Position numbers and translations under genes: made by a program. A DNA stretch of 64,000 nucleotides, taken from the NCBI GenBank assembly GCA_017630405.1, contig JAGBVH010000024.1, positions 31,638 to 95,637 on the forward strand, written 5' to 3'. This DNA is from Alphaproteobacteria bacterium (GTDB taxonomy: Bacteria; Pseudomonadota; Alphaproteobacteria; Rs-D84). Below the pieces are notes generated by a model, which ran no database searches, was not told the DNA's origin, and worked only from the letters and a program-made list of their open reading frames with translations. Shown in pieces: positions 19,797 through 40,412 of the stretch (its first letter is position 1; every line of letters starts with the position of its first letter).

Positions 19797-19940
19797 TTTC
19801 CTTTCCTTTTTTATGTTTTATCATTGTACAGTGTAGCACAAAATGTGATATTTGACAACAAAAAATATTTCGATAAATCTTGCCTTAATTTGAAAATAGG
19901 AGTATCATTTAGCCAGACAAAAAAGTTTAAGGAAGTGCAA

Positions 19941-22900: not shown

Positions 22901-23450
22901 TGGTCAGCAGTCAAAATCTACACCATTTGGTGCCAGTATGAAGTTTGCGATTGGTGGTAAAGAACATGCGAAAAAAGATTTGGGTATGATTGCGATGATG
23001 AGTGGTGCATATGTTGCCCAGATTTCGTTGGGTGCAAATCAGGCCCAGGCAATTCGCGCGTTCCGCGAAGCGGAAAGCTTTAACGGCCCATCAATTATAT
23101 TAGCGTATGCACCATGTATTGCACATGGATTTGCGCTGCAAAATGGGGTTGAGCATCAGATGCAAATGGTTCAGACAGGTTCTTGGCCACTGTATAGATT
23201 TGATCCGCGTTTGATTGCAGATGGGCATAATCCTTTGACCATGGATTCAAGTGTTGATAATCCGTTGCCATTGGAAGAGTTTTTGAAAACTGAATCTAGA
23301 TTTGCGGCAGCACGTGCGGCAAATCCACAGTTTAATAAACTGGTTGATATGGCCAAGGCTAATAATAAGTATAAAAGCGAATTGAAAAAGCATATCGCGC
23401 ATTTTGCGATGCTTAATCAGCCTGAAGTAAAAGAAAACGGGGAAGGATAA
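19941..23450 (+). CDS. Pyruvate:ferredoxin (flavodoxin) oxidoreductase, single-polypeptide NifJ/PorA type
   Basis: MSKLIVDGNWAAADVAYRCVDFAAIYPITPSS... Two ferredoxin-like CxxCxxCxxxCP motifs (CIQCGKCSMLCP and CTGCNVCVKNCP). TPP-binding GGDGWAYDIGYGG. The ORF in the track starts at 19824, but ATG 19941 has an AGGAAG Shine-Dalgarno and matches the PFOR N-terminus. Confidence 0.95.
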   Translation: MSKLIVDGNWAAADVAYRCVDFAAIYPITPSSTMGELADEWSFQHKKNIWGAIPQIIEMQSEAGAAGAMHGALQMGSLATTFTASQGLLLMIPNMYKIAGEQTPFVMHVAARALATHALSIFGDHSDVMSVRSTGFAMLSSHNVQQAHDMAAIAHAATLRTRVPFLHFFDGFRTSHEESRLTRIDDAVLKEMLPDSLVLENRARGMTPDNPTIRGTAQNPDVYFQGREAANPLYDNAPAVVQEMMDKFAELTGRKYNLVDYVGGKNAEHVIVAMGSACETIEETLPHLPAGLGLLKVHLYRPFPVAAFRNALPRSVKSIAVLDRTKEPGSIGEPLFQDVRSVVGDDIAVFGGRYGLGSKEFKPRDVKAIYENMMLGTLKHNFTVGIDDDLTNLSLKTDPAFAVEDPNFKTAILYGIGSDGTVGAVKNIVKIVGENSDLYPQSYAVYDSKKSGGLTASHIRFSDAPIKSQYLVEVADFISVSNFMIAQRFDVFRGLRAGGTVMINTSMAPDVAFANLPRDTQEHLIRIRANVYFLDANRAAAELGLGNRINTFIMLNFFNLTQVIDPAVAAESAKVAIEKTYKKKGMEVVQANWRAVDTAAQYLKQYKLPSSVSSFAPDFVPAMTLDTPAEIAGTLGEMAAQRGDALPVSRFRVDGEFGGGQYPVGTSKYEKRAISDKVATVDIEKCIQCGKCSMLCPHAAIRIKALTEEQAEELRAKGVTVVPMKTPELGPNMYFTINISPADCTGCNVCVKNCPVGALAMKPASEVMADNQAAFNAAEKMPDIPREKLNLNIPKHVELLPHYFEFPGACAGCGETPYVKLLSHLFGDRMVVANATGCSSIYGANLPTTPWTKDAAGRGPAWSNSLFEDNAEYGLGMRLALNQKRDNLKALLFELGVENVEGLFDETDAVKQRQIEADLRKQLAQIDGPRARLAESLVGEIVGKSVWIIGGDGWAYDIGYGGVDHILHSGENVNILVLDTEGYSNTGGQQSKSTPFGASMKFAIGGKEHAKKDLGMIAMMSGAYVAQISLGANQAQAIRAFREAESFNGPSIILAYAPCIAHGFALQNGVEHQMQMVQTGSWPLYRFDPRLIADGHNPLTMDSSVDNPLPLEEFLKTESRFAAARAANPQFNKLVDMAKANNKYKSELKKHIAHFAMLNQPEVKENGEG

Positions 23451-23452
23451 AT

Positions 23453-23485
23453 AAAAAAAACCGGCATTTGCCGGTTTTTTTATTT
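23453..23485. terminator. Bidirectional terminator after the PFOR gene
   Basis: AAAAAAAACCGGCA ttt GCCGGTTTTTTTATTT. Confidence 0.7.
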
Positions 23486-23998
23486 CTGGTTTTGTTGTTC
23501 TAAGATTTTAAGAAACGCTTTATGGGCTTCGTTGTATTGACCGATACCGCTTAAATACAAAGAGGTCTTGATTAAATCTTGACGGTCCAATACGGAACGC
23601 GCATAGGAACGATTTACCTGTGCAGTGCGTTTTTTCAAGTTGTTGTACATATCGCCAAATGCCTGTTCCGCGGAGAAATAGTGAATTTTTGGTTTTACCG
23701 TAAATACACCGTTTTGAGTGTTGCCCATCCAGTACATGGGAACACCGTTTACCTTGTGTGTGCCTGTTGCGGTTAATTTTGCGTAATCCTGTGTGCGTTC
23801 TATTTCATAGAAACAGATGTTGCCACCAACAGAAACAGCCAGTTCAGACAGGTCCTTGATGGCTACGCATGGTTGGCCCATTGTTTTTATTACTGTAATT
23901 TGTTTGTCGTTATCTGTTGTAAATTCATCGATACGCGCAACCTGTAATTCTACGCCGAATTCGTGTGCCATTTCGATACGTTTTGTAAATTTTGCCAT
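23480..23998 (-). CDS. Hypothetical protein
   Basis: The ORF extends to 24034, but ATG at 23998 (MAKFTKRIEMAHEF...) has an AGGAAA Shine-Dalgarno. No recognisable motif. Confidence 0.4.
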   Translation of the reverse strand: MAKFTKRIEMAHEFGVELQVARIDEFTTDNDKQITVIKTMGQPCVAIKDLSELAVSVGGNICFYEIERTQDYAKLTATGTHKVNGVPMYWMGNTQNGVFTVKPKIHYFSAEQAFGDMYNNLKKRTAQVNRSYARSVLDRQDLIKTSLYLSGIGQYNEAHKAFLKILEQQNQK

Positions 23999-24118
23999 TA
24001 TATATTTCCTTTTTTTCAAAGTAGGGACACCCATAGTATGTGATATAAGATAAAAGTCAAATCAAAAAAATACTTTTTTTGTTGATTTTTTGGCGGATTT
24101 ATAGTACTTTTATGGACC

Positions 24119-24547
24119 ATGAAGAGAATTGTTTTGTTTTTATTGGTGGTGTTATCCGCCTGTACTTTCCAGACCAAACATCGTGGTTATGTTTTCCCTG
24201 TGGATGTTGAGACCAAGGTCGCGAATGTTAAAACAACTGAACAGTTAATTGATATTGTTGGCGTGCCCCAGGTCAAGACTGTGTATGGCGATAATGTCTG
24301 GATTTATTATGGTGCGGATGAAAATTATCGTGGACCACTGGCACCGACATTTACAAATGAAACCGTTTTGCTGGCGTGGGTGCGTGGCAATCGTGTGGTT
24401 CGGACCGCTGTTTTACATGACGCGGATTTGCCGGACGTTGTTGTGGCTGATGGCGAAACGGAAATTCCAGCAGCGATTGAGCTAAATGCACTGGAAGAAT
24501 TGTTTAATAATATAGGCAGATTTAGTCCGGCAGGATTGGGACAATAA
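24119..24547 (+). CDS. bamE: Outer-membrane protein assembly factor BamE (SmpA/OmlA lipoprotein)
   Basis: Lipobox LLVVLSAC. RGYVF...TTEQLIDIVGVPQVKTVYGDNVWIYYG pattern matches the SmpA/OmlA fold. Size and GC are typical of core genes. Confidence 0.6.
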   Translation: MKRIVLFLLVVLSACTFQTKHRGYVFPVDVETKVANVKTTEQLIDIVGVPQVKTVYGDNVWIYYGADENYRGPLAPTFTNETVLLAWVRGNRVVRTAVLHDADLPDVVVADGETEIPAAIELNALEELFNNIGRFSPAGLGQ

Positions 24548-24575
24548 AAACACCCCATGGCGGGGTGTTTTTTTG
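24545..24575 (+). terminator. Rho-independent terminator after bamE
   Basis: AAAAACACCCC atgg CGGGGTGTTTTTTTG. It has the same ACACCCCG/CGGGGTGT stem family as the terminators at 27079 and 28320. Confidence 0.7.
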
Positions 24576-24628
24576 CTTGTGCTGGTTATGTGTTTTTTTC
24601 TATCATATTAATATTAATAGGGAAGGAC

Positions 24629-25417
24629 GTGGGAAAAATAACCAGATTTTTGCGGTTTTTAACGGTTTTTGCGATGCTGCCTTTGGGCATGGATGCGTTT
24701 GCTGTGGGTTATGTGTGTGAATCGGTACGCGTTTATACATCCTGTATGGAAGGTTACTATTTATCTGATTGTGGTGGGACTGAAACGGATTGGGATGGTC
24801 GAACATTGGGCGAAGCGGAATTTGTGGCAGGTAACTACTGTGCATCATGTCCAGAAGGATATGACTGTGAAGGTGGTATGAAGTGTCCTTATAATCCAAA
24901 TTCTGTTGTTGAGGGTGGATTTGTTTGCGAAGAAGCATATTTCACATGTGAGGCAGGATATTATTTGTCCGATTGTGGTTCGAATAGTGCGAATTGGTCG
25001 GGCCAGGAACTGACACAAACGGATGTGACAGCGGGTAATTCGTGTGCCATTTGTCCTGTGGGGTATGACTGTGCGGGTGGTATGAAATGTCCGCTTAGAG
25101 TAACAATAAAATGTGAGGCGGGTCAGTATTTGCCTGCAAATTCGGAAGAATGTAAGATATGTTCGATGGGGTCTTATTGTCCTGGTGGTGATTTGGCGCC
25201 TGGTGATAAGGACGCGGGAATTGTTCCTTGTGGTGATGGGACATATGCAGATGAAGAGGGATTGGCGGCATGTAAAAGTTGTGAACCTTTCCATGGCGCA
25301 TCAATAAAGTCTGATGGGGAACGTGACAGTCGTTTGAATTGTTATGTGCCAGCGGACGAACAAGTGACTGATGAAACAGGCAGTTTCACGTATGTGATGG
25401 ATTGTTTTTATGAATAA
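24629..25417 (+). CDS. Secreted cysteine-rich repeat protein, paralog 1 of a tandem family
   Basis: The ATG at 24557 of the track ORF lies inside the bamE terminator hairpin. GTG 24629, preceded by GGAAGGAC, gives a signal peptide (KITRFLRFLTVFAMLPLGMDAFA) that matches paralog 4. Two ~47-aa YYLSDCG...AGNSC.xCPxGYDCEGGMKCP repeats. C-terminal module CYVPADEQVTDETGSFTYVMDCFYE is shared with paralogs 2-4. Confidence 0.65.
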   Translation: MGKITRFLRFLTVFAMLPLGMDAFAVGYVCESVRVYTSCMEGYYLSDCGGTETDWDGRTLGEAEFVAGNYCASCPEGYDCEGGMKCPYNPNSVVEGGFVCEEAYFTCEAGYYLSDCGSNSANWSGQELTQTDVTAGNSCAICPVGYDCAGGMKCPLRVTIKCEAGQYLPANSEECKICSMGSYCPGGDLAPGDKDAGIVPCGDGTYADEEGLAACKSCEPFHGASIKSDGERDSRLNCYVPADEQVTDETGSFTYVMDCFYE

Positions 25418-25436
25418 AAATCATAAGAGTAAACCA

Positions 25437-25513
25437 TCAGGAAGTTTTTTTGCTTGCCTTGCTTGTGGAAAAATTTCTAGAATTTATTTGTAAGGAATAA
25501 AAAGGAGAAAAAA
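25437..25513 (+). promoter_or_regulatory. Conserved promoter/5'UTR cassette of the Cys-rich family (copy 1)
   Basis: TTGCTTGTGGAAAAATTTCTAGAATTTATTTGTAAGGAATAAAAAGGAG is near-identical to 27113..27189. It contains a TAGAAT -10-like element and an AGGAG Shine-Dalgarno. Confidence 0.5.
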
Positions 25514-27061
25514 GTGTCAAAAAGTTCACGTTTTTATGTGGCTTCTTTGGCGGTATTGCTGTCATATAACGCATATGGTGCGGGGTATGTTTGCGATTCG
25601 CTGATGCAGTATAATAGCTGTAAGGAAGGCTTGTATATGGTGTATGGTCAGACAAACAAATATGACCCTGTGCCATCTACTACTAATGATTGTAGACAAT
25701 GTCCAACGAATGCGGCATACTGCGCAGGTGGTGTAGAAGCGCCTTTGTATGCGGTTACATTGGATCCAAATGGCGGTACTGCGGGCGCTATGAATACATT
25801 TTATGTTGCGCAGAGTAAGGCCGATACAAACACCGTGACATACTGTATGGCGGATGCGGAATCTTTGGATACATGTGCAACAAATACTTCGAATCAGTTG
25901 CCACAGGCTGCGATGCCAACTTATGACAGATATCATAGTTTTGTGGGTTTCTTTACCGAGGCAGAAGGTGGCACAATGTTGTCGAATAGTTCGCTTTTGC
26001 TGGGTTATCCCCTATCGGGTGGTTTGACAGGTACAGCGCCTGCGACATTGTATGCTCAGTGGGAGCAGATTCTTTGTTATCCTGGTGAATATATGACGGA
26101 TGATGGGTGTAAGACTTGTCCGGTTACGGCTATGGCTGGCCCAGCATACTGTGAAGGTGATCTGTACAACCCACTGTACACAGTTACCTTAAAGCCAGCA
26201 GGTGGTACGGTTCAGGCCGATCATTTCTGGATTGGTCAAAGCAACAGTGATCAAACATATTACTGCGATGCAAGTGATGATACCAAAAAGTCCGAGTGCG
26301 TGACGAATGCTGGAGGTTCGGTTGCGTTGACGTTCCCATTGGACAGCAAGTATATCCCAACGCGTGATAAACATGCGTTCCTTGGTTGGTCATTGACACC
26401 ACAAATGGATGGCCAGACTGCTAATTATGTAATTGATGCGAATGGTGCTTTGATTGGTACGATTCCATCAGACACCAGTCCACTCTTGTATGCATGGTGG
26501 GAAACAACATCTTGCGAACCAGGTCAGTATCTGGATGAAAGCAAGACATGTCAGTCATGTCCAGAAAACTATAAGGACAGCTCGGGTGCGGGTACAAACG
26601 GCATTGGCGAATGTTACCTGATTACAAAGCCAGGTTATATGGTTGGCTTCGAGGGTCAGGGCGAAATGGATTGCCAAGGCGGATTCTGGTGCCCAGGTAG
26701 TGTCACAGTTTACTATGACAAGACAGGTGGTATGAATCAGTGTCCAGGTAATTATCGTTCCGGTGGTAATAACTTGTCCGCAGAAGCAGAGTGTGCTTGG
26801 AACGTTCCAGGTGGATCTTATGTCAAGAACGCTAAGGACGTTGCGGCAACTGCTTGTGAGTCCGGTGAATGGAAGGCGGCACATACAGTTAAGTATGGCG
26901 AAACCTCCGCGCCACAGACTTGTGCGGGCTTGGATGGCCAGAAGGGTGAATCTGCAGAGCCACGTGACGCAGTAACAACCTGCTTCATCCCAGCGGAACA
27001 GTCGCTGACAAATACCAAGGGTGACTACGTCTTTACAGAAGATTGTAAGTGGACGGAATAA
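25514..27061 (+). CDS. Secreted cysteine-rich repeat protein, paralog 2
   Basis: GTG start, with signal peptide MSKSSRFYVASLAVLLSYNAYGAGYVCDS. Multiple CxxCP...YC / CxxCPENYKDSSG modules. Conserved C-terminal module CFIPAEQSLTNTKGDYVFTEDCKWTE. Confidence 0.7.
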   Translation: MSKSSRFYVASLAVLLSYNAYGAGYVCDSLMQYNSCKEGLYMVYGQTNKYDPVPSTTNDCRQCPTNAAYCAGGVEAPLYAVTLDPNGGTAGAMNTFYVAQSKADTNTVTYCMADAESLDTCATNTSNQLPQAAMPTYDRYHSFVGFFTEAEGGTMLSNSSLLLGYPLSGGLTGTAPATLYAQWEQILCYPGEYMTDDGCKTCPVTAMAGPAYCEGDLYNPLYTVTLKPAGGTVQADHFWIGQSNSDQTYYCDASDDTKKSECVTNAGGSVALTFPLDSKYIPTRDKHAFLGWSLTPQMDGQTANYVIDANGALIGTIPSDTSPLLYAWWETTSCEPGQYLDESKTCQSCPENYKDSSGAGTNGIGECYLITKPGYMVGFEGQGEMDCQGGFWCPGSVTVYYDKTGGMNQCPGNYRSGGNNLSAEAECAWNVPGGSYVKNAKDVAATACESGEWKAAHTVKYGETSAPQTCAGLDGQKGESAEPRDAVTTCFIPAEQSLTNTKGDYVFTEDCKWTE

Positions 27062-27078
27062 TCCTGAGGTTAGCACTA

Positions 27079-27112
27079 AAAAGACACCCCGTTCCCGGGG
27101 TGTTTTTTTTTG
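27079..27112 (+). terminator. Rho-independent terminator after paralog 2
   Basis: AAAAAGACACCCCG ttc CCGGGGTGTTTTTTTTT. Confidence 0.7.
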
Positions 27113-27189
27113 AAGTTCTGCTTTTTTCTCTTGCGTCGATTGTGGAAATTTTTCTAGAATTTGTCTGTAAGGAATAAAAGGAGAAGAAA
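27113..27189 (+). promoter_or_regulatory. Conserved promoter/5'UTR cassette of the Cys-rich family (copy 2)
   Basis: TTGTGGAAATTTTTCTAGAATTTGTCTGTAAGGAATAAAAGGAG aligns with 25437..25513. Confidence 0.5.
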
Positions 27190-28302
27190 TTGTCAAAATA
27201 TTCACGTTTTTATGTAGGGACTCTGGCGGTATTGCTGTCATACAATGCATATGGTGCAGGGTTCGTCTGCGATTCGATTAAGCAGTATGATAGCTGTGAT
27301 ACAGGATACTATTTGTATGGCACAAATGGACTGGGTTCAGTTAATCCTGGAAATGAGTGTAAGACGTGTCCTGATTTACAGGCATTCTGTCCTGGTGGCG
27401 TCAATGGTCCATTGTATCAGACAAAGTTTGGTGTGCAAAACAACGAAGGTGTTGTATTGCGTGACACTCTTATGATTGGTGAAAAATCAGATGGCAGTTT
27501 GTATTGGTGTGATGCTACATTGGACGATCACATTGCAATAGAAGACTGTGTTGAAGCCGGTGGGAATAGTTTTGAAAGTGGAATCGCATCGGACTTTATA
27601 CCGACGCGTCCGCAGTATGCGTTTAGAGGTTGGGCGAATAGTGATGATCTGAGTACTTTGCTTTTTGACAGTCGTGGTAAGATTGCTAATCAGGAAGAGG
27701 TGTCTAGTAGATTGGGTACTATGCAACTGGTTGCAATTTGGGAAAGAACATCATGTAATGCCAATGAATATCTTGAGAATGCGGCATGTAAGCCTTGCCC
27801 AACAGAATTCCCGAACAGCGATGGATCGGGCGGCATCAATACATGTTATGTAGATGTTCAGCCAGGTAAGTATGTATATGGCTTTGCACAGTCCGGCAAG
27901 GGTCAGGAAGACTGCCCAGCTGGTCATTACTGTGAAGGTGGTATGAGAGCGTACTATAATGATCAAGAGATTGGTGCGACACAGTGTCCAGAGAACTATA
28001 GAAATGGTGGCGCTGGATATACTTCAATCACTCAGTGTGTTGCAACAGTTCAGGGTGGTTATCGTATCGAAACAGAGAACAGTGCACCAGCTGTCTGTGC
28101 AAGTGGCACATGGAGCCTTGAACACTCGGTCACATATGGTCAGACATCCACATGTGAATCCTGTGGTACATTGGATGGTGTTGCAGCCTCGTCTAAGGAA
28201 CCACGTAATTCCAAGACAAGTTGCTATATCGCTCCAAATCAGGGAACTAAGGACGATAGAGGTAACTATACCTTTACACAAGACTGCGTATGGACAGAAT
28301 AA
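27190..28302 (+). CDS. Secreted cysteine-rich repeat protein, paralog 3
   Basis: TTG start, with signal peptide MSKYSRFYVGTLAVLLSYNAYGAGFVCDS. The N-terminus is near-identical to paralog 2. Conserved C-terminal module CYIAPNQGTKDDRGNYTFTQDCVWTE. Confidence 0.7.
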   Translation: MSKYSRFYVGTLAVLLSYNAYGAGFVCDSIKQYDSCDTGYYLYGTNGLGSVNPGNECKTCPDLQAFCPGGVNGPLYQTKFGVQNNEGVVLRDTLMIGEKSDGSLYWCDATLDDHIAIEDCVEAGGNSFESGIASDFIPTRPQYAFRGWANSDDLSTLLFDSRGKIANQEEVSSRLGTMQLVAIWERTSCNANEYLENAACKPCPTEFPNSDGSGGINTCYVDVQPGKYVYGFAQSGKGQEDCPAGHYCEGGMRAYYNDQEIGATQCPENYRNGGAGYTSITQCVATVQGGYRIETENSAPAVCASGTWSLEHSVTYGQTSTCESCGTLDGVAASSKEPRNSKTSCYIAPNQGTKDDRGNYTFTQDCVWTE

Positions 28303-28319
28303 TCTTGTTCGTATTGGTC

Positions 28320-28352
28320 AAAAAAACACCCCGATTGCGGGGTGTTTTTTTG
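28320..28352 (+). terminator. Rho-independent terminator after paralog 3
   Basis: AAAAAAACACCCCG attg CGGGGTGTTTTTTTG. Confidence 0.7.
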
Positions 28353-28432
28353 TGAATTTTTGCTTTTTTGGCTTGCGTCAATTTGGCTAATTTTATACCA
28401 TTAGATATAAAGGGATAAGGAAAGATATTCAT

Positions 28433-31400
28433 ATGTTTAGATTTCTGCGTTTTTTAGCAGTTTTTGTAGCGTTATTTGTTAGTGCAAATGCGTTAGCTGT
28501 TGGTTTTGTTTGCGAATCGGAACGTACTTATACATCGTGTGTAAGCGGGTATTATTTGTCCGATTGTGGCAGTTATTCCGATGGCCGCACATTGACCGAA
28601 TCGGATTTGTCGGCTGGAAATTCGTGCGTTCTATGCCCAGATGGTTATGACTGTGAAGGTGGTATGAAGTGTCCCTATGATCCGAATGCGGATGAAGATG
28701 ATGGTTTTGTCTGTGATGAAGCGTATTTCTCGTGTGAGTCTGGTTATTATCTGTCTGACTGTGGTGATACAGAGTATGCTTGGGATGGGCGCACTTTGAC
28801 CAAAGATGAAGTTACATTTGGCAACTCTTGTGAAGCCTGTCCAGAAGGTTATGATTGTGAAGGTGGTATGACATGTCCAGCAGGTAGTAATAAGCCGATA
28901 ACCAGCTGTCCAGCCGATCAGTTTTTATCTGATTGTAATAATCTTTCTTCTTGGACAGGCCAGACACTGGATAGTAGTAATTTAAGTGCAAATAATAGTT
29001 GTGTGTCTTGTCCCGATGAATATTCTTGTTCTGGTGGTTTGAGTTGTCCTGCTAGAATAACTGGTGAGTCTGGATTTACTTGTGATTATAAAATATTTAC
29101 GGGGTGTGGAGAAGGGCGTTTCTTGTCCGATTGTGGTGCTTCATCTAATTGGATTGGGCAGACATTGGAAAGAGATGAACTTGAAGCTGGTAATAGTTGT
29201 CTTGCTTGTCCAGATGGTTATGACTGTGAAGGTGGGACGACATGTCCGATTAATATGAATCTGGAGTATTTGTTTGAGGTTATAACTACGTCTGGAACGA
29301 CAAGCTTTAAGTTTAATATCAACGCATCTGGTAATTACTGGGTTGATTGGGGTGATGGCAAGGTTGAAATGAGGAAGTCTGTAGAGTCAACAACCTTTGA
29401 CCATACGTATGCTAGCGCTGGTGCTTATACAATTAAGATTGGTGGTGTGTCTGGATCCTATCCATATGCGGAAGATGATACGCCAGCGATGACATTTTAC
29501 AACAAGACCAATGTTGCGGCTTTGGATGGTAGCCTTGGTAAATTGTTCCCTGTATTAAAGGATTCTGGGGTAAATCCATACTTTGGGTATATGTTCTCGG
29601 GCGCGACTAATTTGAAGCAAATTCCATCGACTCTGTTTTTGGGAATTGGTGATACAGATCGTCCAGCTATGTTTGAAGGTATGTTTGCGAATTCTGGTTT
29701 GACTTCGATTCCTGTCGGTCTGTTCAACAGTATAACTCAACCTGCGGATGGATTGTTTAGTGATATGTTCTTGGGAATTAAAGCGTTAACCAGTTTGCCA
29801 GAAGGTTTGTTTGCTCATATTGATGCGGCCGCGGGCGAAGCAGAATATATGTTCAGCTATACATTTAGTGGTACTGGGCTGACAAGTTTGCCGGATTCGC
29901 TGTTTGGTGAGTTGGAAGCATCTGATGGATTGTTCTCTAATACCTTTTCGAATACACCATTGGAGCAGATTCCTGCGGATTTGTTTAGCGGTGTAACAGG
30001 TGTGGCGCCTGCTATGTATCAGGCTACGTTTGATACTGCTGATGTAAGATCTATACCTGTTGGCTTGTTTGATGGCTTGTATGGTCAGGATAGTATACCG
30101 GATACAATGTTTGAGGGCACGTTTAGTGCGTGTACATCTTTGTCTGGTCCTGCGGCGCGATTCTCGGATAATTTGGGTGGCAAGTTCCTGCACGAGGTTT
30201 GGCCGATGTTGGAAGCCGATATGGGTACATATGCCGATACAAATATTGATAATTTGAAGTATATCCCAACATCTTGGGGTGGTGGTGGCCTTGTAAAGTG
30301 TGCGGCTGGTACATATTTGCCAGAAAATGCATATGTTTGCGAAACCTGTCCAGCTGGCTCATATTGCCCAGGTGTTGATGAGTTGTTTATTGATTCTGTT
30401 GAGCAGGGACGGGTATCTTGTCCTGCGGGTTATACAAGCAATGCAACTGGTAATACCAGTGGTGTAGATTGCTTTGGTGGGTACAAGTTCACAATCGAGA
30501 CTCTGCCTATGACTGGTGCGTTTGAATTGTCTCTGGTATCTGTTAAGGGTAATTATTGGATTGATTGGGGTGATGATACACCGGTGGAATATATACCAGT
30601 AACCGATTTTGCCAACAAAACCGTTCCACACACATATGAAGGTTCTGCTGAGGCGCGCACGATTAAGATTGGCGGTTTGACAACGGAGTATAATCAAGAT
30701 ATGGCGGCATGGAGTTCTGGTGTATTCAAAATCAATGGGAATCAGTATGTGTCGAAGGTTTCGGGCAGTTTGGGTGCCATATTCCCAACAATGTCAGACG
30801 GAACACAGCCTGGATTCTTTAATTTGTTTATGAGCTGTCCAAATCTGACTGAAATTCCATCGACATTGTTTGATGGTGTCCATGGTCAGCCACGTGTCCA
30901 GATGTTCTTTAATTCCTTTGCTGGAACAGGTTTGACATCAATCCCAGAAGGCTTGTTTGCTGGATTGGATGGCGCGCCAACCGAAATGTTGTTTGCAAAT
31001 ACTTTTGCGGGCACCAAAACTACATCGATACCGGATGGACTGTTTGATGGGCTGGACACATCGGCACCAGGTGCAGAAAATATGTTTGCGCAGACATTTT
31101 ATAATTGCACGTCTTTGACTGGTCCTGCGGCGAAAATGTCCGCGGCCAATGGTGGTCAGTATCTGCATAAAATCTGGCCGATGAGTGGTGCGACTATGCA
31201 GACTTATACCGGCACAAATATTGATGGGCTGCGTGCTATCCCAGTGTCTTGGGGTGGCGAGGGTGTCTTGGATTGTGTCGCTGGTACATATCAGTCTGCG
31301 GACGAAACAGAGTGTTTGACATGTGCTTTGGGTGCTTTCTGTGTTGGTGGATTAGCACCACAGGAAACATGCGCTGATGGTACTTATGCTGACGAAACTG

Positions 31401-31558
31401 GCTTGGCAGAATGTAAAGCGTGTGATAAGTTGTATGGAGTTGGCGCTTCGTCGTCCTTGCCTCGTACTTCAATAAATAATTGCTATATTCCAAAGGATGT
31501 GGGGTTAAGTGATGGTAAGGGTAATTTCTCATTTATAGAGAATTGCCAGTATCAGTAA
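28433..31558 (+). CDS. Large secreted cysteine-rich protein, paralog 4, with four N-terminal Cys repeats and an internally duplicated beta-sandwich plus BspA-like leucine-rich repeat module
   Basis: 1041 aa. Signal peptide MFRFLRFLAVFVALFVSANALA. Four ~47-aa CPxGYDCEGG repeats (nt ~28520..29248). Two ~300-aa modules (nt ~29261..30292 and ~30485..31267), each with GNYW(V/I)DWGD, followed by ...LTSIP.GLF... repeats and ...YLH.(V/I)WPM...IP.SWGG. Family C-terminal module ...CYIPKDVGLSDGKGNFSFIENCQYQ. Confidence 0.75.
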   Translation: MFRFLRFLAVFVALFVSANALAVGFVCESERTYTSCVSGYYLSDCGSYSDGRTLTESDLSAGNSCVLCPDGYDCEGGMKCPYDPNADEDDGFVCDEAYFSCESGYYLSDCGDTEYAWDGRTLTKDEVTFGNSCEACPEGYDCEGGMTCPAGSNKPITSCPADQFLSDCNNLSSWTGQTLDSSNLSANNSCVSCPDEYSCSGGLSCPARITGESGFTCDYKIFTGCGEGRFLSDCGASSNWIGQTLERDELEAGNSCLACPDGYDCEGGTTCPINMNLEYLFEVITTSGTTSFKFNINASGNYWVDWGDGKVEMRKSVESTTFDHTYASAGAYTIKIGGVSGSYPYAEDDTPAMTFYNKTNVAALDGSLGKLFPVLKDSGVNPYFGYMFSGATNLKQIPSTLFLGIGDTDRPAMFEGMFANSGLTSIPVGLFNSITQPADGLFSDMFLGIKALTSLPEGLFAHIDAAAGEAEYMFSYTFSGTGLTSLPDSLFGELEASDGLFSNTFSNTPLEQIPADLFSGVTGVAPAMYQATFDTADVRSIPVGLFDGLYGQDSIPDTMFEGTFSACTSLSGPAARFSDNLGGKFLHEVWPMLEADMGTYADTNIDNLKYIPTSWGGGGLVKCAAGTYLPENAYVCETCPAGSYCPGVDELFIDSVEQGRVSCPAGYTSNATGNTSGVDCFGGYKFTIETLPMTGAFELSLVSVKGNYWIDWGDDTPVEYIPVTDFANKTVPHTYEGSAEARTIKIGGLTTEYNQDMAAWSSGVFKINGNQYVSKVSGSLGAIFPTMSDGTQPGFFNLFMSCPNLTEIPSTLFDGVHGQPRVQMFFNSFAGTGLTSIPEGLFAGLDGAPTEMLFANTFAGTKTTSIPDGLFDGLDTSAPGAENMFAQTFYNCTSLTGPAAKMSAANGGQYLHKIWPMSGATMQTYTGTNIDGLRAIPVSWGGEGVLDCVAGTYQSADETECLTCALGAFCVGGLAPQETCADGTYADETGLAECKACDKLYGVGASSSLPRTSINNCYIPKDVGLSDGKGNFSFIENCQYQ

Positions 31559-31618
31559 AAAAAATTGCGTTTGTAAAGTGCAGTCAAAAAGTGTAAAATA
31601 AGGTAAAGCGAGAAAAAT

Positions 31619-32152
31619 ATGGTAAAAAAGATTTTGTTTTCGATTCTGGTTTTATTTTGTGCTGTGCCAATGGCAATGGCTGACTTTTCTTGTGGGGCAG
31701 GATATGTTCTGGCTAAACATAAGGATATAGACGGTATTCCTGCGATGGAATGTCAGAAGTTGTGGTGTCGTGACTTGGAAACGGGCAAGGTTATGGGCAA
31801 GGGAAATACCGCAAATACTGGTTATCAGGCAACAAGCGCGCCGGTTCAGGTTTGTGATGCCAAGGATAATTGTATAGAATGTTGGGGGCAGCGCAGATGG
31901 TGTGCTGGTAATGTGCGTGGGGATTGGAATCCTGAATATGGTGCATATACACGCGGTGGTGACAGTGTGACATATAAATCTTATCAAAAGGGTGGCTGTT
32001 TTGCGTGGCGTTTGCAAAAGGCGGACTGCCCAGATGGTCAGGCGGCCGTTTTGCAGGGTGATGAATGGGTTTGTGTGGTGTCGTCGGGCGGTTCCAGTGC
32101 ACAACGCGCACCGGCTATTCGTAGAACTGGCGCGATTCGAGCCACAAAATAG
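31619..32152 (+). CDS. Small secreted cysteine-rich protein
   Basis: Signal peptide MVKKILFSILVLFCAVPMAMA. 14 Cys in 155 mature residues. No separate terminator from paralog 4, so possibly co-transcribed. Terminator hairpin at 32159..32190. Confidence 0.55.
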   Translation: MVKKILFSILVLFCAVPMAMADFSCGAGYVLAKHKDIDGIPAMECQKLWCRDLETGKVMGKGNTANTGYQATSAPVQVCDAKDNCIECWGQRRWCAGNVRGDWNPEYGAYTRGGDSVTYKSYQKGGCFAWRLQKADCPDGQAAVLQGDEWVCVVSSGGSSAQRAPAIRRTGAIRATK

Positions 32153-32272
32153 TGCTTTTAAGGTCCGAGGTTTCGGACCTTTTATTTTTTTTGTCCATTT
32201 ATTTGTTTTTTTGACTTTTTTGTGATATACTGTTCTGGACAGAGAGAATGACAACCGGATAAAGGTAGTCTT

Positions 32273-32833
32273 ATGCCAAGTAAGAAATTAGATTTTAAAG
32301 CAGGACAGTATGTCGTTTACCCAACACAAGGTGTGGGTAAGTTGTTGCGTATAGAAGAGCAAACAATCGCAGGTCAAAAAATTAAATTGATGGTTATTGA
32401 TTTCGAAAGAAATCATATGACTTTGCGTGTGCCATTGGAACGGGCCGAGATTTCAGGATTGCGTCCTTTGACCAGTGCCAAGAAAATGGACGAAGCAATT
32501 GCGTCAGCCAAGGGCAAGGCGGGTGCCAAGCGTATGATTTGGGCGCGTCGTGCCGCGCAGTATGAAGAAAATATTAACTCGGGCGATCCTATGAAGTTGG
32601 CCGAGGTTGTGCGTGATTTACAGCGCCGTACCGCCGCTGATACGATGACATTTTCTGCACGCCAGTTGTATTTGCGTGCGTTAGAGCGTATGGCCCAAGA
32701 GTTTGCAGTTTTACATAAAATTGATTTGGATTCTGCATCTGAAAAAATTGAAGATATTTTGGGGATTCCAAAAGAAATCGATTTGAATGCTGCGGATGTG
32801 GACGAAGAAGAGATAGAGGAAGAAGATTCCTAG
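32273..32833 (+). CDS. CarD/CdnL-family RNA polymerase-binding transcription factor
   Basis: DFKAGQYVVYPTQGVGKLLRIEEQTIAGQKIKLMVIDFERNHMTLRVPLERAE matches the CarD_CdnL_TRCF N-terminal domain. Acidic C-terminal tail. Confidence 0.8.
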   Translation: MPSKKLDFKAGQYVVYPTQGVGKLLRIEEQTIAGQKIKLMVIDFERNHMTLRVPLERAEISGLRPLTSAKKMDEAIASAKGKAGAKRMIWARRAAQYEENINSGDPMKLAEVVRDLQRRTAADTMTFSARQLYLRALERMAQEFAVLHKIDLDSASEKIEDILGIPKEIDLNAADVDEEEIEEEDS

Positions 32834-32835
32834 AA

Positions 32836-32872
32836 TAAAAAATCCTGCCGATGGCAGGTTTTTTATTTTTTT
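32836..32872. terminator. Bidirectional terminator after the carD-like gene
   Basis: AAAAAATCCTGCC gat GGCAGGTTTTTTATTTTTTTG. Confidence 0.7.
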
Positions 32873-33069
32873 GTTGCCCAAAATAATGCCCAAAGCCAAG
32901 CCAGACCAGACCAACCAAAAAGCCAGCTGCCTAGACGCACAGCGTGCATTGCGGGTTTGCCTTTGCCGTTTTGGCGTGCAACCCATGCGGGGGCTAAAAC
33001 AATCGCGATGATAATAGTTATGCCGGCGGCATATTTTATAATCTGTGAAATAATATTTGCATCTATCAT
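32863..33069 (-). CDS. Small hydrophobic membrane protein (68 aa)
   Basis: Two predicted TM helices (ITIIIAIVLAPAWVA and LGSWLFGWSGLAWLWALFWA). Function unknown. Confidence 0.35.
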   Translation of the reverse strand: MIDANIISQIIKYAAGITIIIAIVLAPAWVARQNGKGKPAMHAVRLGSWLFGWSGLAWLWALFWATKK

Positions 33070-33121
33070 CTTAATAAATTAAGGGGGCTTTTTTATGCCC
33101 CCCATTTCCATTCCGTTTGGA

Positions 33122-34399
<1,278 letters not shown>

Positions 34400-34478
34400 C
34401 TAGTGAATTTCGTCTTGCCTTGATAAAACGAATTGTGCCATAATATAATCACAAATAGGATTGGAAGAAAATAAAAAA

Positions 34479-37400
34479 ATGATGAAAAAGTTAATTTCCT
34501 TGATTTGCTGCTTGTTGCCAATGGGTGCGGTGGCTGGTGTTTCGTATATTTCGCCAAGTGAAACTGGTGGTGCGGTTTCGACTGAACAGGCTGATTGGCC
34601 TGCGGGTTCGAACAATACCGTTGTGGTACAGGAGGCCAGTGGAATTAATGCGCCTGGCGGTTTGTCGTTTCGTGAAATGTATGCGGGGCAGGCGACTGAC
34701 AGTGGCAGTGCGTTGGCTACAGAAGGCGTATTGTATGTGAACCAGTTGTCTGGCGAGGGACCTTTTACGGTTTCTTCTGGTGGTGCTGTATCGCTGAACG
34801 CATTGTTGAGTGTTTTAAATAATAATGAGCTTGCTTTTATTGGTGCTGATAATGGTGCGTATGATTTTACCGTTGGAAATATGGATGTTGCACAGTCGGG
34901 GGCGGTTAATGTGGCGGCAGGTTCTTCTTTGACAGTGAAAAATGCTGATGATTTTGCTGTCTATGGGACTGTTACAAATTCAGGAAATGTCGAGGTTGTT
35001 GCGAATTCCGTTGTTGCCGGTAAATTAGAAGCCGCAGATGGCGATATGGGACTTAGCGCGGCAAATGGTGTGTTTGTTGCTGGTGTTGGTACTGACGCTG
35101 ATGCAAGTGTTACGATTTCGGCAAGTGGCGAAAGTCAGCAAAATATATCTGGTACTGATATTGAGGGCGGAATCATTTCATATGGTACCGTTCAGAATAA
35201 TGGTACGGGCAGCGTAAATCTTAATTCGGCATCTGGTATATATGTTCTTGATGGTGATGCGGATGATGATACAGGGAACCTTGAAAACAATAATGTAGAT
35301 GGTACTTTGACTGTGGCGGGTGCTGATGGTACTGGGGCTGCGGGCGCTTTGATTGTTGATGGAACTATTAACAATTCTGGAAATATGAACGTGAGTGCCG
35401 ATTCGTTGTTGGTCAAAGGCGGTGATAGTGCGACCGGTTCTATTCAAAATACTGGTGATTTAGTTGTCGCTGTGACAAATGAAGCCAATGTTGGTTATGG
35501 TGTTAATTTGTCTGGTATGTCTGCTGATAAAAAGTTTGATTTTACTGCAGGTAGTTTGGCGTTTGGTCAGGATGCGAGCGCAGATATGATTCAGGGGATG
35601 TTTTCAAATGACTTGAATTCATATAATTTGTCTGTTGGCGGTGCGCTGGATTTAAGTCAATCAGATGTTGATATTGTTAACAACTCGGGAAATATGTCTG
35701 TAGGTGCTGGTAATGTCAGTGTTAATAATGTTTCAAATGCGGGACAAGAATTGAAGGTTGTTGCATCTGGTGAGGCTGGCGGTAATGTTGAAGTTGAAGG
35801 ACAAGTTGTAGGTTCGGCTGGTTCTGTGACTAATGTTACGGCAGAAAATGAGTTGAGTGTGGCTGATGCGGTTTCCAATCAAGGAACGATGACATTAAGC
35901 GGTACTACAGTTAAATTAACTTCTGTTTCTAATAGTGGTGCGGATTCTGATTTGACTGTTTCTTCTTCAACTGAAGGTGGGGCTGTTCTGGTTAGTGGTG
36001 AAGTTACAAATGCCGATGGTAATATGTTGGTTCAGGCCGAAGATATTACATTTGGCGCGATGGTGACAAATAATAGTGGTACTATGACAGTAAAGGGTTC
36101 GGATAGTGATAATGGTGCTGTTGCATTCGAGTCTATTGATGTTGCGGGGGGGACAGTTAATATTGATGCACTTGGTGGTGCGGTTTCGTTTGGTGGTAAT
36201 GCGCCATCGCCGGTAGCAGAAGGGGCACAGGCTGATTCTCAGGTTGCGATTAATGTTTCTGGTGGTGTGTTGAATTTTGGAACAAATGTTCGTGATGTTC
36301 AGTCCGCAGAAAATGTAAATATTGATGGCGGATTGTATGCTCGTGAAAATCTGATGACAGAAGCGGGCAGTGTGAATGTTCAATCAACGATGGCTGGTGG
36401 TGCGTCTGCATTTACTTTGGATGCTGGGTCGAATGATGTTGTTTTGGGCAAGGTTGTTGCTGATGGCTCGATTTCCGGCGGTGATATTATAATTGATGAT
36501 GCAACGGTAAAGCGCGGGGTGACTATCTCCGCGGATGGTTTGCATGCGATGGGGGATGTGACTGTTGCGAATTCTGGCAGTATGTTGTCTTTGACAGCGA
36601 ATTCGCTGGATATTGATGGATTGTTGACTGTTGGTGAAGGCAATTCGTTAAATCTTACTGCAGCGCAGGTTTATACCGGTTCGGTTGAATCGCATGGTAA
36701 AATTATGGCAGCAACATCCTTGATTACTGCTGACAATGGCAATGTGTTGTTTGATGGTAATTTATATATGGGTGTGACCGATAGTTATGCTGCTGCTGGT
36801 TTGTTTGCAAATGGTAATACTTTAACCATAACAACTACTGGGACTGATGGTTATGATATCAGTTTTGGTGGTGCACAGATTGCCAATGGTAATACTTTGA
36901 CAGTCAGCGCAAGCGGTGATGTTTCATTTGGTACAGAAATGAATAATGCTGGTGTTGTGACAATGAACGCTGATAATGCTTCGTTTGCGGCTGTCACGAA
37001 TTCAGGAACAACTACAGTGATTGTGACCGAAGATATTACAGCAACTGGCACAATTGATAATGACAAGAATTTGATTATGACAGCGGCTGATTTTAATTTG
37101 GCCAATGTTGATAATAGCGATACTTTGAATATCAATTCATTGGCAGGAACTGTGACGATGGCGGATGTGGATAACACAAGTTCTATGGTTGTTGCTGGTG
37201 CCAAGGCGATTGTAGCTGGCGATATTGAAAATAATGCTGGTGTTATGAATCTTAATGCCACAGAAAGCATCAACGGACAAAGTTTGGCGATTTCTGGTAC
37301 TGGTGCTAAGGCGACATTGAATACGGCAAAGGCTGAGTTTGCAAATGCTGTTAGTGTTGCTGGCGATATGGTCCAGGGCGCAACAAGTGGCGCGTTGAAT

Positions 37401-39815: not shown

Positions 39816-39817
39816 TA

Positions 39818-39850
39818 ATAGCCCCGCCGAAATGGCGGGGCTTTGTTTGG
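39818..39850 (+). terminator. Rho-independent terminator after the autotransporter gene
   Basis: ATAGCCCCGCC gaaat GGCGGGGCTTTGTTTGG. Confidence 0.65.
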
Positions 39851-39926
39851 GGTAAATTTTTCCTAGACAAATTGTATTCTTCATATGATATAATTTTTTT
39901 AGAAAACGAAAATAAAGGAGATGCAA

Positions 39927-40313
39927 ATGAAAAAGATTTCTTTGGTCGCATTGATGGGCGTGTTGTCTGTTGGCGCAGCATTGGCTGAGTTTCAGGCCCC
40001 AGCACCGATGGTTGCAACACATACAAATACCAAAGGCGGATTTGTCAGTGGTGATGAAGTTATCGTGACAGTAAAACAAGTTAATGAAATGCGTGATGAT
40101 GTGCCGGTTGTTGTCAAGGGACATATTGTTCAGCGTATGGGTGATGAAAAATATTTGTTTGAAGATTCTACTGGTTCTATTACTGTTGAAATCGATGATG
40201 AAGACTGGCGCGGTCAGACGATTACATCAACAGATACTGTAAAATTGACAGGTGAAGTTGATCGTGGTATTTTCAAAACAGAAATCGAAGTAGATTATGT
40301 TGAAAAAATCTAG
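39927..40313 (+). CDS. YgiW/YdeI (BOF, bacterial OB-fold) periplasmic stress protein
   Basis: Signal peptide. VKGHIVQRMGDEKYLFEDSTGSITVEIDDEDW...VKLTGEVDRGIFKTEIEVDYVEKI matches the YgiW OB-fold family. AAGGAG Shine-Dalgarno sits 6 nt upstream of ATG 39927. Confidence 0.7.
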   Translation: MKKISLVALMGVLSVGAALAEFQAPAPMVATHTNTKGGFVSGDEVIVTVKQVNEMRDDVPVVVKGHIVQRMGDEKYLFEDSTGSITVEIDDEDWRGQTITSTDTVKLTGEVDRGIFKTEIEVDYVEKI

Positions 40314-40412
40314 AATTTAATCGCCCGTTTGGGCGATTTTTTTAAGAATAGATACCAATACATATTGCGCGGTATATTGATAAAATAGATATGGTAAAAA
40401 TAGGAGAGAGAT

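Follow-up and report, generated by a model that had tools for sequence, protein, structure and literature searches.

A duplicated PKD-like/LRR-like module in a predicted secreted, cysteine-rich protein of an Rs-D84 alphaproteobacterium

Introduction

Several described repeat systems resemble the protein reported here. The BspA/TpLRR proteins, among them BspA of Tannerella forsythia, LrrA/TpLRR of Treponema and TvBspA of Trichomonas, are secreted or surface-exposed and consist of tandem units belonging to the clan of leucine-rich repeats (LRR) with an 'F..C..L(T/S)SI.P' core, which our family shares. They form expanded families in host-associated microbes, and their formal pattern spans 23 residues (PMC2843621). 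DUF285/PARCEL proteins share with our family an 'MF..C..L' core, a predicted LRR-clan solenoid, an enrichment in reduced genomes and matches in a library of predicted viral structures. The DUF285 motif reads 'dls.wdts.vt', in place of which our family has 'IP..LF.G..G'. PARCELs are enriched in reduced-genome Mollicutes and carry palindromic (dyad-symmetric) motifs in their repeat-coding DNA (PMC2996958).

The typical-type LRR ectodomains (Toll, LRRTM, lamprey variable lymphocyte receptors or VLRs, and repebodies) resemble our family in their overall concept, a capped LRR solenoid that offers a diversifiable surface for binding. Two further domain types are relevant: PKD domains (PF00801/PF18911), found in ColH and in bacterial surface proteins, with whose WxxGDG...HxY...GxYxV signature and roughly seven-stranded sandwich our family agrees, and Ephrin_rec_like/TNFR repeats (PF07699, e.g. 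ELAPOR1), whose C..G.Y....C..C..G.YC.G spacing recurs in the linkers described below.

The host belongs to the Rs-D84/Enterousia lineage, which occurs widely in the guts of humans, ruminants, horses and birds. Its members have genomes below 1 Mbp, lack respiration and standard transporters, and are predicted to be obligate symbionts or parasites living off partner cells; a role in contacts with other cells has been proposed for their 'hypothetical membrane-bound proteins' (PMC12306168).

Results

A modular gene among housekeeping genes and paralogues

The window, a 64-kb stretch of DNA from a metagenome-assembled genome (MAG), contains the following genes and signal.

28433..31558, + strand: gene for a predicted secreted, Cys-rich modular protein of 1041 aa (ORF list, exact-sequence look-up)
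28433..28501, + strand: predicted Sec signal peptide, aa 1-23, MFRFLRFLAVFVALFVSANALAV (by eye from the sequence)
24557..25417, + strand: 286-aa paralogue without the PKD-LRR module (blastp against the 1041-aa protein)

An exact-sequence look-up identified the 1041-aa product as MBO5834128.1, an NCBI 'hypothetical protein' of a MAG labelled Alphaproteobacteria bacterium. Its N-terminus combines a basic n-region, a hydrophobic core and ANA-LA, and AlphaFold2 (AF2) models a helix at aa 2-16, features from which Sec export is predicted. In the protein, whose C-terminal domain is modelled with low confidence, we found neither an outer-membrane anchor nor a secretion signal. Pfam and NCBIfam profile searches returned no enzymatic domain, and NCBIfam offered no usable family. 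No homologue is characterised, all relatives being annotated as 'hypothetical' or 'PKD domain-containing'.

The surrounding genes encode PFOR, CarD, enolase, UvrA, PolA and paralogous secreted proteins, and no mobile-element genes adjoin the ORF. The 286-aa paralogue is 60% identical to aa 3-165 and 42% identical to aa 946-1041 of the larger protein (blastp); it shares the frame of the larger protein, with a signal peptide, two N-terminal Cys repeats, an ephrin-like knot and the C-terminal domain.

Two copies of a composite module

The central part of the protein is organised as follows.

29240..30292, + strand: module A, aa 270-620; PKD-like head followed by 7 LRR-like units and a cap (blastp, AF2)
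29267..29548, + strand: head A, aa 279-372, GNYWVDWGDG...HTY...GAYTIKIGG (AF2 strands at aa 281-366, sub-threshold Pfam, family profile)
29549..30157, + strand: solenoid A, aa 373-575 (pattern matches, unit table, phmmer)
30158..30292, + strand: cap A, aa 576-620, GGKFLHEVWPM...TYADTNIDNLKYIPTSWGG (family conservation, P0120)
30461..31267, + strand: module B, aa 677-945; PKD-like head followed by 4 LRR-like units and a cap (blastp, tblastn, AF2)
30485..30781, + strand: head B, aa 685-783, GNYWIDWGDD...HTY...ARTIKIGG (AF2 strands at aa 686-778, DNA motif)
30782..31132, + strand: solenoid B, aa 784-900 (pattern matches, unit table)
31133..31267, + strand: cap B, aa 901-945, GGQYLHKIWPM...TYTGTNIDGLRAIPVSWGG (P0120, alignment with cap A)

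A preliminary description of this DNA had proposed an internal duplication, and comparing the protein with itself by blastp bears this out, as modules A and B align with E = 5e-47 and 34% identity. All of the motifs that it quoted are present (GNYW(V/I)DWGD, HTY...TIKIGG, LTSIP.GLF and GG(K/Q)(F/Y)LH(E/K)(V/I)WPM...IP.SWGG), and tblastn found exactly two copies of the module in the window. The limits required adjustment, since both copies start about 7-8 residues further upstream than proposed, at about aa 270 and 677; the length of about 300 aa given in that description applies to the whole module, and the sandwich itself has about 95 aa. The AF2 model of module A (pLDDT 93, pTM 0.91) shows a sandwich followed by a low-regularity solenoid and a cap, and module B has the same order of secondary structure in the whole-protein model (pLDDT about 90-96). 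Module A has 76 homologues.

Both heads carry the PKD signature W.FGDG...H.Y...G.Y.V and are modelled with about seven strands at high confidence (pLDDT >90 for both, >95 for head A). The family profile matches the PKD structures 4xed and ColH at about 1e-3, and the top fold matches of the module among predicted viral structures are annotated 'PKD domain-containing protein'. These observations support the proposed assignment of the head as a PKD-like beta-sandwich. In Pfam, module A scores below threshold against PKD/PKD_4 (PF00801/PF18911; 16.5/16.7 bits against cut-offs of 23.5/27, E about 0.008) and module B has no PKD match, but a PKD match at E <= 0.01 is obtained for 11 of 50 relatives, and many multi-module relatives carry precomputed PF00801/PF18911 annotations. 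In contrast to other PKD domains, the head ends in its own 'GG.ATGY' segment leading into the solenoid, and within this family it is never seen alone.

Age of the duplication

Modules A and B lie in tandem, and their similarity crosses the cap-to-linker junction (30262-30316 versus 31237-31291, 73% identical over 55 nt); the DNA encoding the GNYW.DWGD motif of the two heads is 93% identical over 28 nt. Because the A/B similarity extends some 30 residues beyond the cap and takes in the first Cys knot of each following linker, the duplicated unit comprises the module and the start of the linker. Together with relatives such as P0122, in which modules of one protein are mutual best matches at about 60%, these features would fit a recent in-place tandem duplication, possibly a young repeat that slippage or recombination still expand or contract. 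Against such an event, protein identity between the modules is only 34%, and their DNA similarity is confined to conserved motifs.

P0120, a paralogue from the same MAG, carries both modules in the same order. Between the two proteins, identity is 52% for the A modules and 68% for the B modules, against 33-43% for A with B. Since the A-A and B-B identities exceed the A-B identity, the A/B split predates the duplication that separated the 1041-aa gene from P0120. In addition, modules of other proteins are at least as close to A and B as these are to each other (38-42%), and the heads of A and B are each nearer to heads of other proteins than to one another. We therefore rejected a recent duplication, which we regard as very improbable; the 'internal duplication' does not hold as a fresh event, and the comparison indicates that A and B are anciently diverged paralogues. 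They would have been assembled by module shuffling, gain and loss of units, and insertion into a conserved Cys-rich frame.

Divergence between the 1041-aa protein and P0120 is uneven along the module. The caps are 87% (A) and 97% (B) identical, while the head and LRR region of module A reaches 44-51%. Gene conversion, instead of a structural constraint, could be what keeps the caps alike.

A long-period solenoid of the LRR clan

Instead of the five to six repeats per module originally counted, module A has six full units (starting at aa 383, 413, 441, 473, 500 and 528, with a spacing of 27-31 residues) and a capping unit at aa 559, and module B has three full units (aa 795, 824 and 853) and a capping unit at aa 884, thus lacking about three units relative to A. 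The family consensus is mF..TF.gCtgLTsIP..LFsGitG.a.. for the unit and G.YLYEIWP...Y...L.DY..IP..W for the cap. A family-specific unit pattern matched the 1041-aa protein 8 times, against no match in 500 shuffles, and across the family the unit spacings are 29 (764 cases), 31 (740), 30 (354), 27 (247) and 28 (137) residues.

The family profile matches solved LRR structures, namely Toll/VLR (4e-21), LRRTM (1e-20) and the BspA-type 4fs7 and 4gt6 (about 1e-9). A phmmer search with module A alone gives 1.6e-8 for 4psj, a designed LRR, and about 1e-4 for VLRs. These matches support placing the repeat region in the LRR clan, although none of the window modules passes a Pfam or NCBIfam LRR threshold. 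The strongest matches, with E-values down to 4e-21, arise from the alignment of 'L..LP.g.F..L' of typical-type LRRs with 'LTSIP..LF.G(I/V)' of our family. However, our unit is 4-7 residues longer, F/M replaces L in its first half, and its consensus has Cys at the conserved Asn position of the typical-type repeats. Furthermore, the N-terminal partner of our solenoid is a PKD-like sandwich and not an LRRNT cap.

We searched two fold libraries with Foldseek, the PDB (solved structures) and BFVD (predicted viral structures). Neither module A nor the whole-protein model gave a PDB match at E <= 1e-3, and no LRR protein, typical-type or other, was among the 50 matches listed. This null result does not prove the fold to be new, given that predicted viral proteins of the LRR_5/DUF285 type are matched by the same model. 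The nearest kin, found in BFVD, are annotated as 'PKD domain-containing', 'Leucine rich repeat 5', '26-residue repeat', 'BspA family' and DUF285 (E 5e-11 to 7e-7), and one cyanophage protein aligns over nearly the full length of both partners (364 aligned columns, TM 0.54 both ways). DSSP assigned almost no strands to the repeat region of the AF2 models, so that the solenoid geometry rests on prediction. The solenoid may represent a long-period LRR subclass without a solved representative.

As the best fold matches are phage proteins with a PKD-plus-solenoid layout, the protein might be a prophage receptor-binding or decoration protein. The viral bias of these matches is an artefact of the libraries searched, BFVD and the PDB; moreover, the neighbouring genes are housekeeping genes and genes of paralogous secreted proteins with no phage genes among them, a signal peptide is predicted, and the genomic loci of the family are chromosomal, with several per genome. 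A prophage origin was rejected on gene context and appears extremely improbable.

Relationship to BspA/TpLRR and to DUF285/PARCEL

The preliminary description had called the repeats BspA-type/DUF285-like LRRs. The affiliation to the LRR clan (4e-21) and the kin in BFVD agree with this view, but the TpLRR pattern is absent and the period differs. If the protein were a bona fide BspA/TpLRR (LRR_5) member, it would be expected to bind host matrix or cells by means of TpLRR repeats, as BspA of Tannerella does. Consistent with membership, LRR_5 is matched by 9 of 50 relatives (best E 2.5e-13), the family profile retrieves 4fs7 and 4gt6 as given above and the TpLRR structure 6mlx at 0.05, and the BFVD matches include 'Leucine rich repeat 5' proteins and a 'BspA family' fragment with a TM of 0.60 normalised to the target. 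On the other hand, the TpLRR pattern has no match in the 1041-aa protein, even with A relaxed to any residue, nor in any of 309 compared proteins; the period is 27-31 instead of 23 residues; LRR_5 (PF13306) gives no match on the protein or its modules at E <= 1; and the strongest PDB profile matches are to typical-type LRRs through the L..LP.g.F segment. Moreover, our solenoid always occurs with a PKD-like head and a dedicated cap, as a discrete stackable module. Strict membership was rejected on pattern and period, and we consider it unlikely; since LRR_5 matches relatives and not the window protein, the kinship with LRR_5 holds at family level only.

A second possibility is that the repeats are PARCEL elements (DUF285/TIGR02167), i.e. 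mobile, palindromic DNA coding for amphipathic repeats and spread by horizontal transfer. The occurrence of PARCELs in reduced genomes, the DUF285 matches in 3 of 50 relatives, the '26-residue repeat' proteins in BFVD and a faint TIGR02167 match (E = 0.01, over a stretch of 9 residues) point in this direction. Yet the TIGR02167 score of 15.6 bits stays below the cut-off of 30, and the Pfam check proposed earlier gave no DUF285 match on the 1041-aa protein. The period of 27-31 residues also departs from the canonical 25-26. Inverted k-mer pairs are no more numerous in the DNA that codes for the LRRs than in codon-shuffled controls (e.g. 0 against a mean of 1.2 for LRR A at k = 8; 3 against 3.1 for both modules at k = 9), which gives no excess of dyad symmetry, and no mobile-element genes are adjacent. 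Based on the HMM score, the period and the lack of dyad symmetry, PARCEL identity was rejected as quite improbable.

Cysteine-rich stalk and linkers

The modules are set in the following Cys-rich regions.

28502..29251, + strand: four Cys repeats of ~55-60 aa (aa 24-82, 91-150, 157-208 and 215-273; DNA and protein repeats)
30293..30460, + strand: Cys linker 1, aa 621-676, ephrin-receptor/TNFR-like knot (Pfam Ephrin_rec_like)
31268..31555, + strand: Cys linker 2 and C-terminal domain common to neighbouring paralogues, aa 946-1041 (Pfam, blastp)

The N-terminal repeats each end in C..CP.GY.C.GG..CP, are modelled with a pLDDT of about 70-88 and probably form a disulfide-bonded stalk. They match DUF7631 weakly (E = 7e-4, 20.4 bits over 4 stretches). 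The whole protein marginally reaches the threshold of DUF7631 (PF24634, a family of unknown function; 28.1 bits against 27, E = 3e-6), with a partial match of aa 958-976 to positions 3-21 of 50.

Ephrin-receptor-like Cys modules had been proposed around the repeats. Linker 1 aligns with the full Ephrin_rec_like profile (1-48 of 48; 19.8 bits, E = 6.8e-4), and linker 2 with the C-terminus scores 23.0 bits (E = 7e-5), both just under the gathering cut-off of 23.1; the linkers are also modelled with low confidence. Linker 2 further matches TNFR_c6 (E = 1.5e-3), and six relatives carry precomputed PF07699 annotations. The best whole-protein Foldseek matches in the PDB are ELAPOR1, RANK and CD40, with E-values that are not significant. 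A single-sequence PDB search with linker 1 and a Pfam scan of the Cys-rich tail of P0120 returned no match.

A large family in gut Rs-D84/Ca. Enterousia

The family comprises 2,477 representative proteins at E <= 1e-3, of which 388 at E <= 1e-30. Some members are 6,000-7,600 aa long, the largest of these giants having 7,626 aa, and up to 21 stretches are matched in one protein; arrays read in the sequences show that other members stack the module 3-13 or more times. A genome scan by tight head alignment with the pattern Gx[FY]x[VI]DWGDG confirmed 274 loci, with multiple loci in several genomes. The best 80 of the 274 all come from gut MAGs, labelled Ca. Enterousia (many), Alphaproteobacteria, Rickettsiales, proteobacterium or 'bacterium'; because the pattern favours close relatives, this taxonomic restriction may be overstated. 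Thus, the architecture regarded at first as an unusual chimera is recurrent within the lineage, and the 1041-aa protein is a small two-module family member, not a unique chimera.

We found no description of this PKD-LRR module in the literature on Enterousia, Rs-D84 or DUF285 combined with PKD. Within the Rs-D84/Ca. Enterousia lineage, the module is the characteristic building block of a large family of proteins that is as yet undescribed. The 1041-aa protein is best read as an undescribed variant within a known kind of protein.

Discussion

Considering the above results, we propose, with a probability of about 0.6, that the 1041-aa protein is a multivalent adhesin, a Sec-exported, disulfide-rich modular protein of the surface or extracellular space of a partner-dependent, uncultured gut bacterium with a reduced genome. 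Its surface display and its adhesion are inferred. The ephrin-receptor/TNFR-type Cys knots and the four N-terminal Cys repeats would serve as rigid spacing elements that precede and separate the modules, and these stalk elements would project two ligand-binding solenoids outwards. Specificity would be set by the divergent surfaces of heads and LRRs, and the caps and Cys frames would be structural. By analogy with BspA, the protein may bind host cells, and the PKD-LRR module most likely serves for adhesion to partner cells.

Alternatively, the protein may not be an adhesin, being instead a structural, S-layer-like component of the envelope or a surface scaffold capturing nutrients or enzymes. 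Envelope, enzyme-associated and phage structural proteins likewise contain PKD and LRR domains, the surface capture of substrates is conceivable in a bacterium without standard transporters (PMC12306168), and the present evidence does not discriminate between binding partners. However, the strong divergence of heads and LRRs between paralogues and the extreme variation in copy number and length within the family suit recognition better than a uniform lattice, and an enzymatic domain is absent. We consequently hold a role other than adhesion to be rather doubtful, and retain the multivalent adhesin as the preferred reading.

A more specific and tentative version of the adhesin reading is that the module is a dedicated partner-recognition device of Rs-D84 (Ca. 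Enterousia), a diversifiable cassette comparable to variable lymphocyte receptors and stacked in giant surface proteins. Which host, protist or bacterial cell these obligately dependent bacteria bind would then be decided by fast-evolving faces of head and LRR, and the giant module-stacked proteins would take up a sizeable share of a genome below 1 Mbp. If this proved true, the recognition solenoid would belong to an LRR subclass without an experimentally solved representative.

The long-period LRR subclass is missed by the Pfam LRR models in the window protein and in most relatives. As Foldseek likewise finds no significant solved match, a structure of the module and a new family model would both be worthwhile aims. 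Since the conserved and divergent parts of the module are clearly separated, these can be expressed and tested for binding. For the biology of the lineage, the large, lineage-enriched PKD-LRR family provides a concrete candidate for the means by which Rs-D84/Enterousia may attach to their partner cells.

An old duplication inside the 1041-aa protein

We found that the 1041-aa secreted-type, Cys-rich protein carries two copies of one module, each made of a PKD-like head, an LRR-like solenoid and a cap, and each followed by a Cys linker.

28433..31558 (+), ORF of 1041 aa, from the ORF list

When the protein was compared with itself by blastp, aa 277-620 (module A) aligned to aa 685-945 (module B) with E = 5e-47 and 34% identity. 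The pattern of one repeat unit had 8 matches in the protein and 0 in 500 shuffles, and tblastn against the 64-kb window recovered these two module copies alone. The internal duplication put forward in the preliminary description is real and far above chance, and all motifs quoted for it were found. Its anatomy had to be revised: rather than 5-6 repeats per module, module A contains six full units and module B three, each with a capping unit. The similarity between the proposed stretches stood and their bounds shifted, since in the AF2 models the first strand of each module starts about 7-8 residues further upstream, and in blastp the A/B similarity runs about 30 residues past each module into the following Cys knot. 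At the DNA level, 30262-30316 and 31237-31291 are 73% identical.

Modules of other proteins (38-42% identity) resemble A and B at least as well as A and B resemble each other (34%). Both A and B are present, in the same order, in P0120. This paralogue of 1681 aa comes from the same MAG and has 61% identity across 94% of the query. Between the two paralogues, identity is 52% for A-A and 68% for B-B, versus 33-43% for A-B; the A/B split therefore predates the gene duplication that gave the two proteins, and comparisons of the heads alone give the same picture. Module B of P0120 has more units than its counterpart, so unit number drifts. The comparison also shows a mosaic divergence: identity is 87-97% in the caps, 70% in the N-terminal frame and only 44-51% in module A's head and LRR. 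The 286-aa neighbour (24557..25417) has the same frame and zero modules. The modules behave as cassettes placed into a conserved Cys-rich frame.

Head, cap and Cys linkers

The AlphaFold2 model of module A, run with a 50-sequence alignment, reached pLDDT 93 and pTM 0.91. It consists of a beta-sandwich of about seven strands (module residues 10-97), a long stretch with almost no DSSP-regular structure, and a terminal cap with short helices; in the whole-protein model both modules have this layout (pLDDT about 90-98). The head bears a PKD signature, G.(F/Y).(V/I)DWGDG followed by H.Y and G.Y.I.I.G. Pfam PKD models fall just under threshold on this copy (E = 0.008) and match in 11 of 50 relatives and in many multi-module relatives, and the family profile matches the PKD domains of ColH and of peptidase 4xed.

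As for the Cys modules, described earlier as ephrin-receptor-like, linker 1 aligns to the full Ephrin_rec_like profile. The threshold is 23.1 bits, and the two linkers reach 19.8 and 23.0. The top fold matches of the whole model (ELAPOR1, RANK and CD40; Foldseek) are non-significant. An "ephrin-receptor/TNFR-like" label is reasonable but borderline.

Kinship of the repeats

Across the family, units are spaced by 29, 31, 30, 27 or 28 residues (2,686 spacings, 309 proteins), and the 29-residue unit has the consensus mF..TF.gCTgLTsIP..LFsGitG.a... Profile comparisons show kinship with the LRR clan: the family profile matches solved LRR proteins (Toll/VLR 4e-21, LRRTM 1e-20) and the LRR_5-type structures 4fs7 and 4gt6 (about 1e-9), and module A alone matches a designed LRR (1.6e-8) and VLRs (about 1e-4) in an alignment that passes through the "LTSLP.GLF..L" segment. 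Pfam found LRR_5 in 9, DUF285 in 3 and LRR_8 in 3 of 50 relatives, and none of the three on the 1041-aa protein itself.

Among predicted viral structures (BFVD), strong fold matches were obtained (E 4.8e-11 to 7e-7, probability 1.00), including a 353-aa protein of cyanophage S-SKS1 that aligns over 364 columns, nearly the full length of both proteins, with a TM of 0.54 in either direction. Because of these matches, the predicted solenoid can be placed in the LRR_5/DUF285 structural neighbourhood, and the pairing of PKD head and solenoid also occurs outside this lineage. Foldseek recognised no solved structure of this solenoid class. The LRR assignment is well supported by sequence, and by fold it is supported among predictions only.

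The same pairing of PKD-like head and LRR_5/DUF285-like solenoid is seen in phage proteins, e.g. M4QPG4 of Synechococcus phage S-SKS1 (E = 4.8e-11, TM 0.54 in either direction). The composite may have been swapped between phages and bacteria, or may be a phage receptor-binding scaffold.

The repeats had been called BspA-type or DUF285-like, and neither name holds in the strict sense. The formal TpLRR (BspA-type) pattern (PMC2843621) has 0 matches in the 1041-aa protein and 0 in the 309 proteins of the family set, and the period is wrong for that type. PARCEL/DUF285 repeats are defined by a 25-residue unit, by HMMs of their own and by repeat DNA with dyad symmetry (PMC2996958). Here, the period is not 25 residues, TIGR02167 reaches 15.6 bits where 30 are required, and inverted k-mer pairs are no more frequent in the repeat-coding DNA than in codon-shuffled controls.

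A large family in gut bacteria

With module A as query, phmmer was run exhaustively against 1.84 billion representatives. It returned 2,477 proteins at E <= 1e-3, of which 1,285 pass E <= 1e-10 and 388 pass E <= 1e-30. The best matches are giant proteins, 2,000-7,600 aa long, in which up to 21 stretches match. Some relatives are simple stacks (P0113 with five modules; P0122, P0126 and P0133 with three each), in all of which a motif scan found the cap type of the 1041-aa protein, though not behind every module. Others are mixed arrays (P0103 with at least 13 heads, P0104 with seven), where the module has an alternative Cys-containing cap at its end and alternates with Listeria-Bacteroides/InlB-B-type repeats. 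The architecture, first taken for an unusual chimera, is recurrent in this lineage. The literature search found no paper describing the PKD-LRR module.

In the giant relatives P0103, P0104 and P0107, the alternative cap reads ...NLSGYIPP..F...CP.G..QY.TGYE..W..KVSC, and modules and InlB-B/Listeria-Bacteroides-type repeats follow each other in regular alternation, which gives a higher-order super-repeat of about 500-600 aa. Behind the signal peptide, the relatives P0002, P0008, P0010, P0113, P0122, P0126 and P0133 share a conserved N-terminal region absent from the 1041-aa protein (...VNVEYIH..I...W.(I/V)..PYNP.L....VAANM.YLL..VD.AN..L.G...), which may represent another type of anchoring or assembly domain.

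Scanning one genome for each GTDB species gave 274 confirmed loci. Every one of the best 80 comes from a gut MAG, under the labels Ca. Enterousia, "Alphaproteobacteria bacterium", "uncultured Rickettsiales", proteobacterium or "bacterium"; among these 80, the named sources are ruminants, horse, human cohorts and birds (avistercoris), and several genomes give five to seven loci each. The 1041-aa protein itself is listed at NCBI as MBO5834128.1, with the name "hypothetical protein", from an alphaproteobacterial MAG, and the CarD encoded next to it clusters with Ca. Enterousia. Rs-D84/Enterousia genomes are below 1 Mbp and have neither respiration nor a TCA cycle (PMC12306168).

Genomic neighbourhood

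24557..32152 (+), five consecutive secreted Cys-rich protein genes (286, 515, 370, 1041 and 177 aa)
24546-24572 (+), 27084-27103 (-), 28319-28352 (+), terminator-like hairpins with the common core ACACCCC-N4-GGGGTGT, between paralogous genes
32160-32181, next strong hairpin after the 1041-aa gene
34461..39815 (+), 1784-aa Gly/Asn/Val/Ser-rich repetitive protein with a signal-like N-terminus and C-terminus ...SGSYRF
7072..10155 (-), 1027-aa protein with a low-complexity Thr/Ser/Arg-rich N-terminal region and a Cys-rich body

The first four genes of the cluster share signal-peptide and C-terminal similarity with the 1041-aa protein. Where PKD-LRR modules would be, the 515- and 370-aa members have weak Listeria-Bacteroides-repeat (Flg_new) or DUF7631 similarity, which suggests a family that swaps cassettes on one frame. 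Terminator-like sites are commoner than in shuffles (18 vs 7.9), and the shared-core hairpins may be copies of an intergenic repeat and not independent terminators. Within 31559..32181, no such site separates the 1041-aa gene from the 177-aa Cys-rich ORF (31619..32152), the next strong hairpin being the one at 32160-32181, and the two genes may be co-transcribed.

By eye, the 1784-aa protein looks like an autotransporter or outer-membrane protein; it has no Pfam match at E <= 1e-3. The 1027-aa protein, also without a Pfam match, is a further large, secreted-looking uncharacterised protein in a genome reported to be < 1 Mbp. GC skew is positive in all 2-kb bins of 1..64000, its cumulative curve climbs monotonically and the + strand carries most of the large genes, which fits a position of the whole window on the leading strand of one replichore.

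A possible role

The preliminary observation is confirmed and its interpretation partly supported: the 1041-aa protein is neither a unique chimera nor a strict BspA or DUF285 member. Export would proceed via Sec, with a putative signal peptide recognised by eye and as an AF2 helix at aa 2-16; neither an anchor, a route across the outer membrane nor a ligand was identified for this protein. The Cys repeats, presumably stabilised by disulfides, could act as rigid spacers and the two PKD-LRR modules as ligand-binding units, with specificity residing on the divergent head and solenoid faces. The whole protein would then be a multivalent adhesin for a partner-dependent lifestyle.

As a putative LRR-type surface protein it is of an already known kind, and it belongs, with its two modules, to a large family that has not been described before. 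Its interest would rise if the solenoid were a structurally distinct LRR subclass, or if the module were the means of attachment of these reduced-genome gut bacteria.
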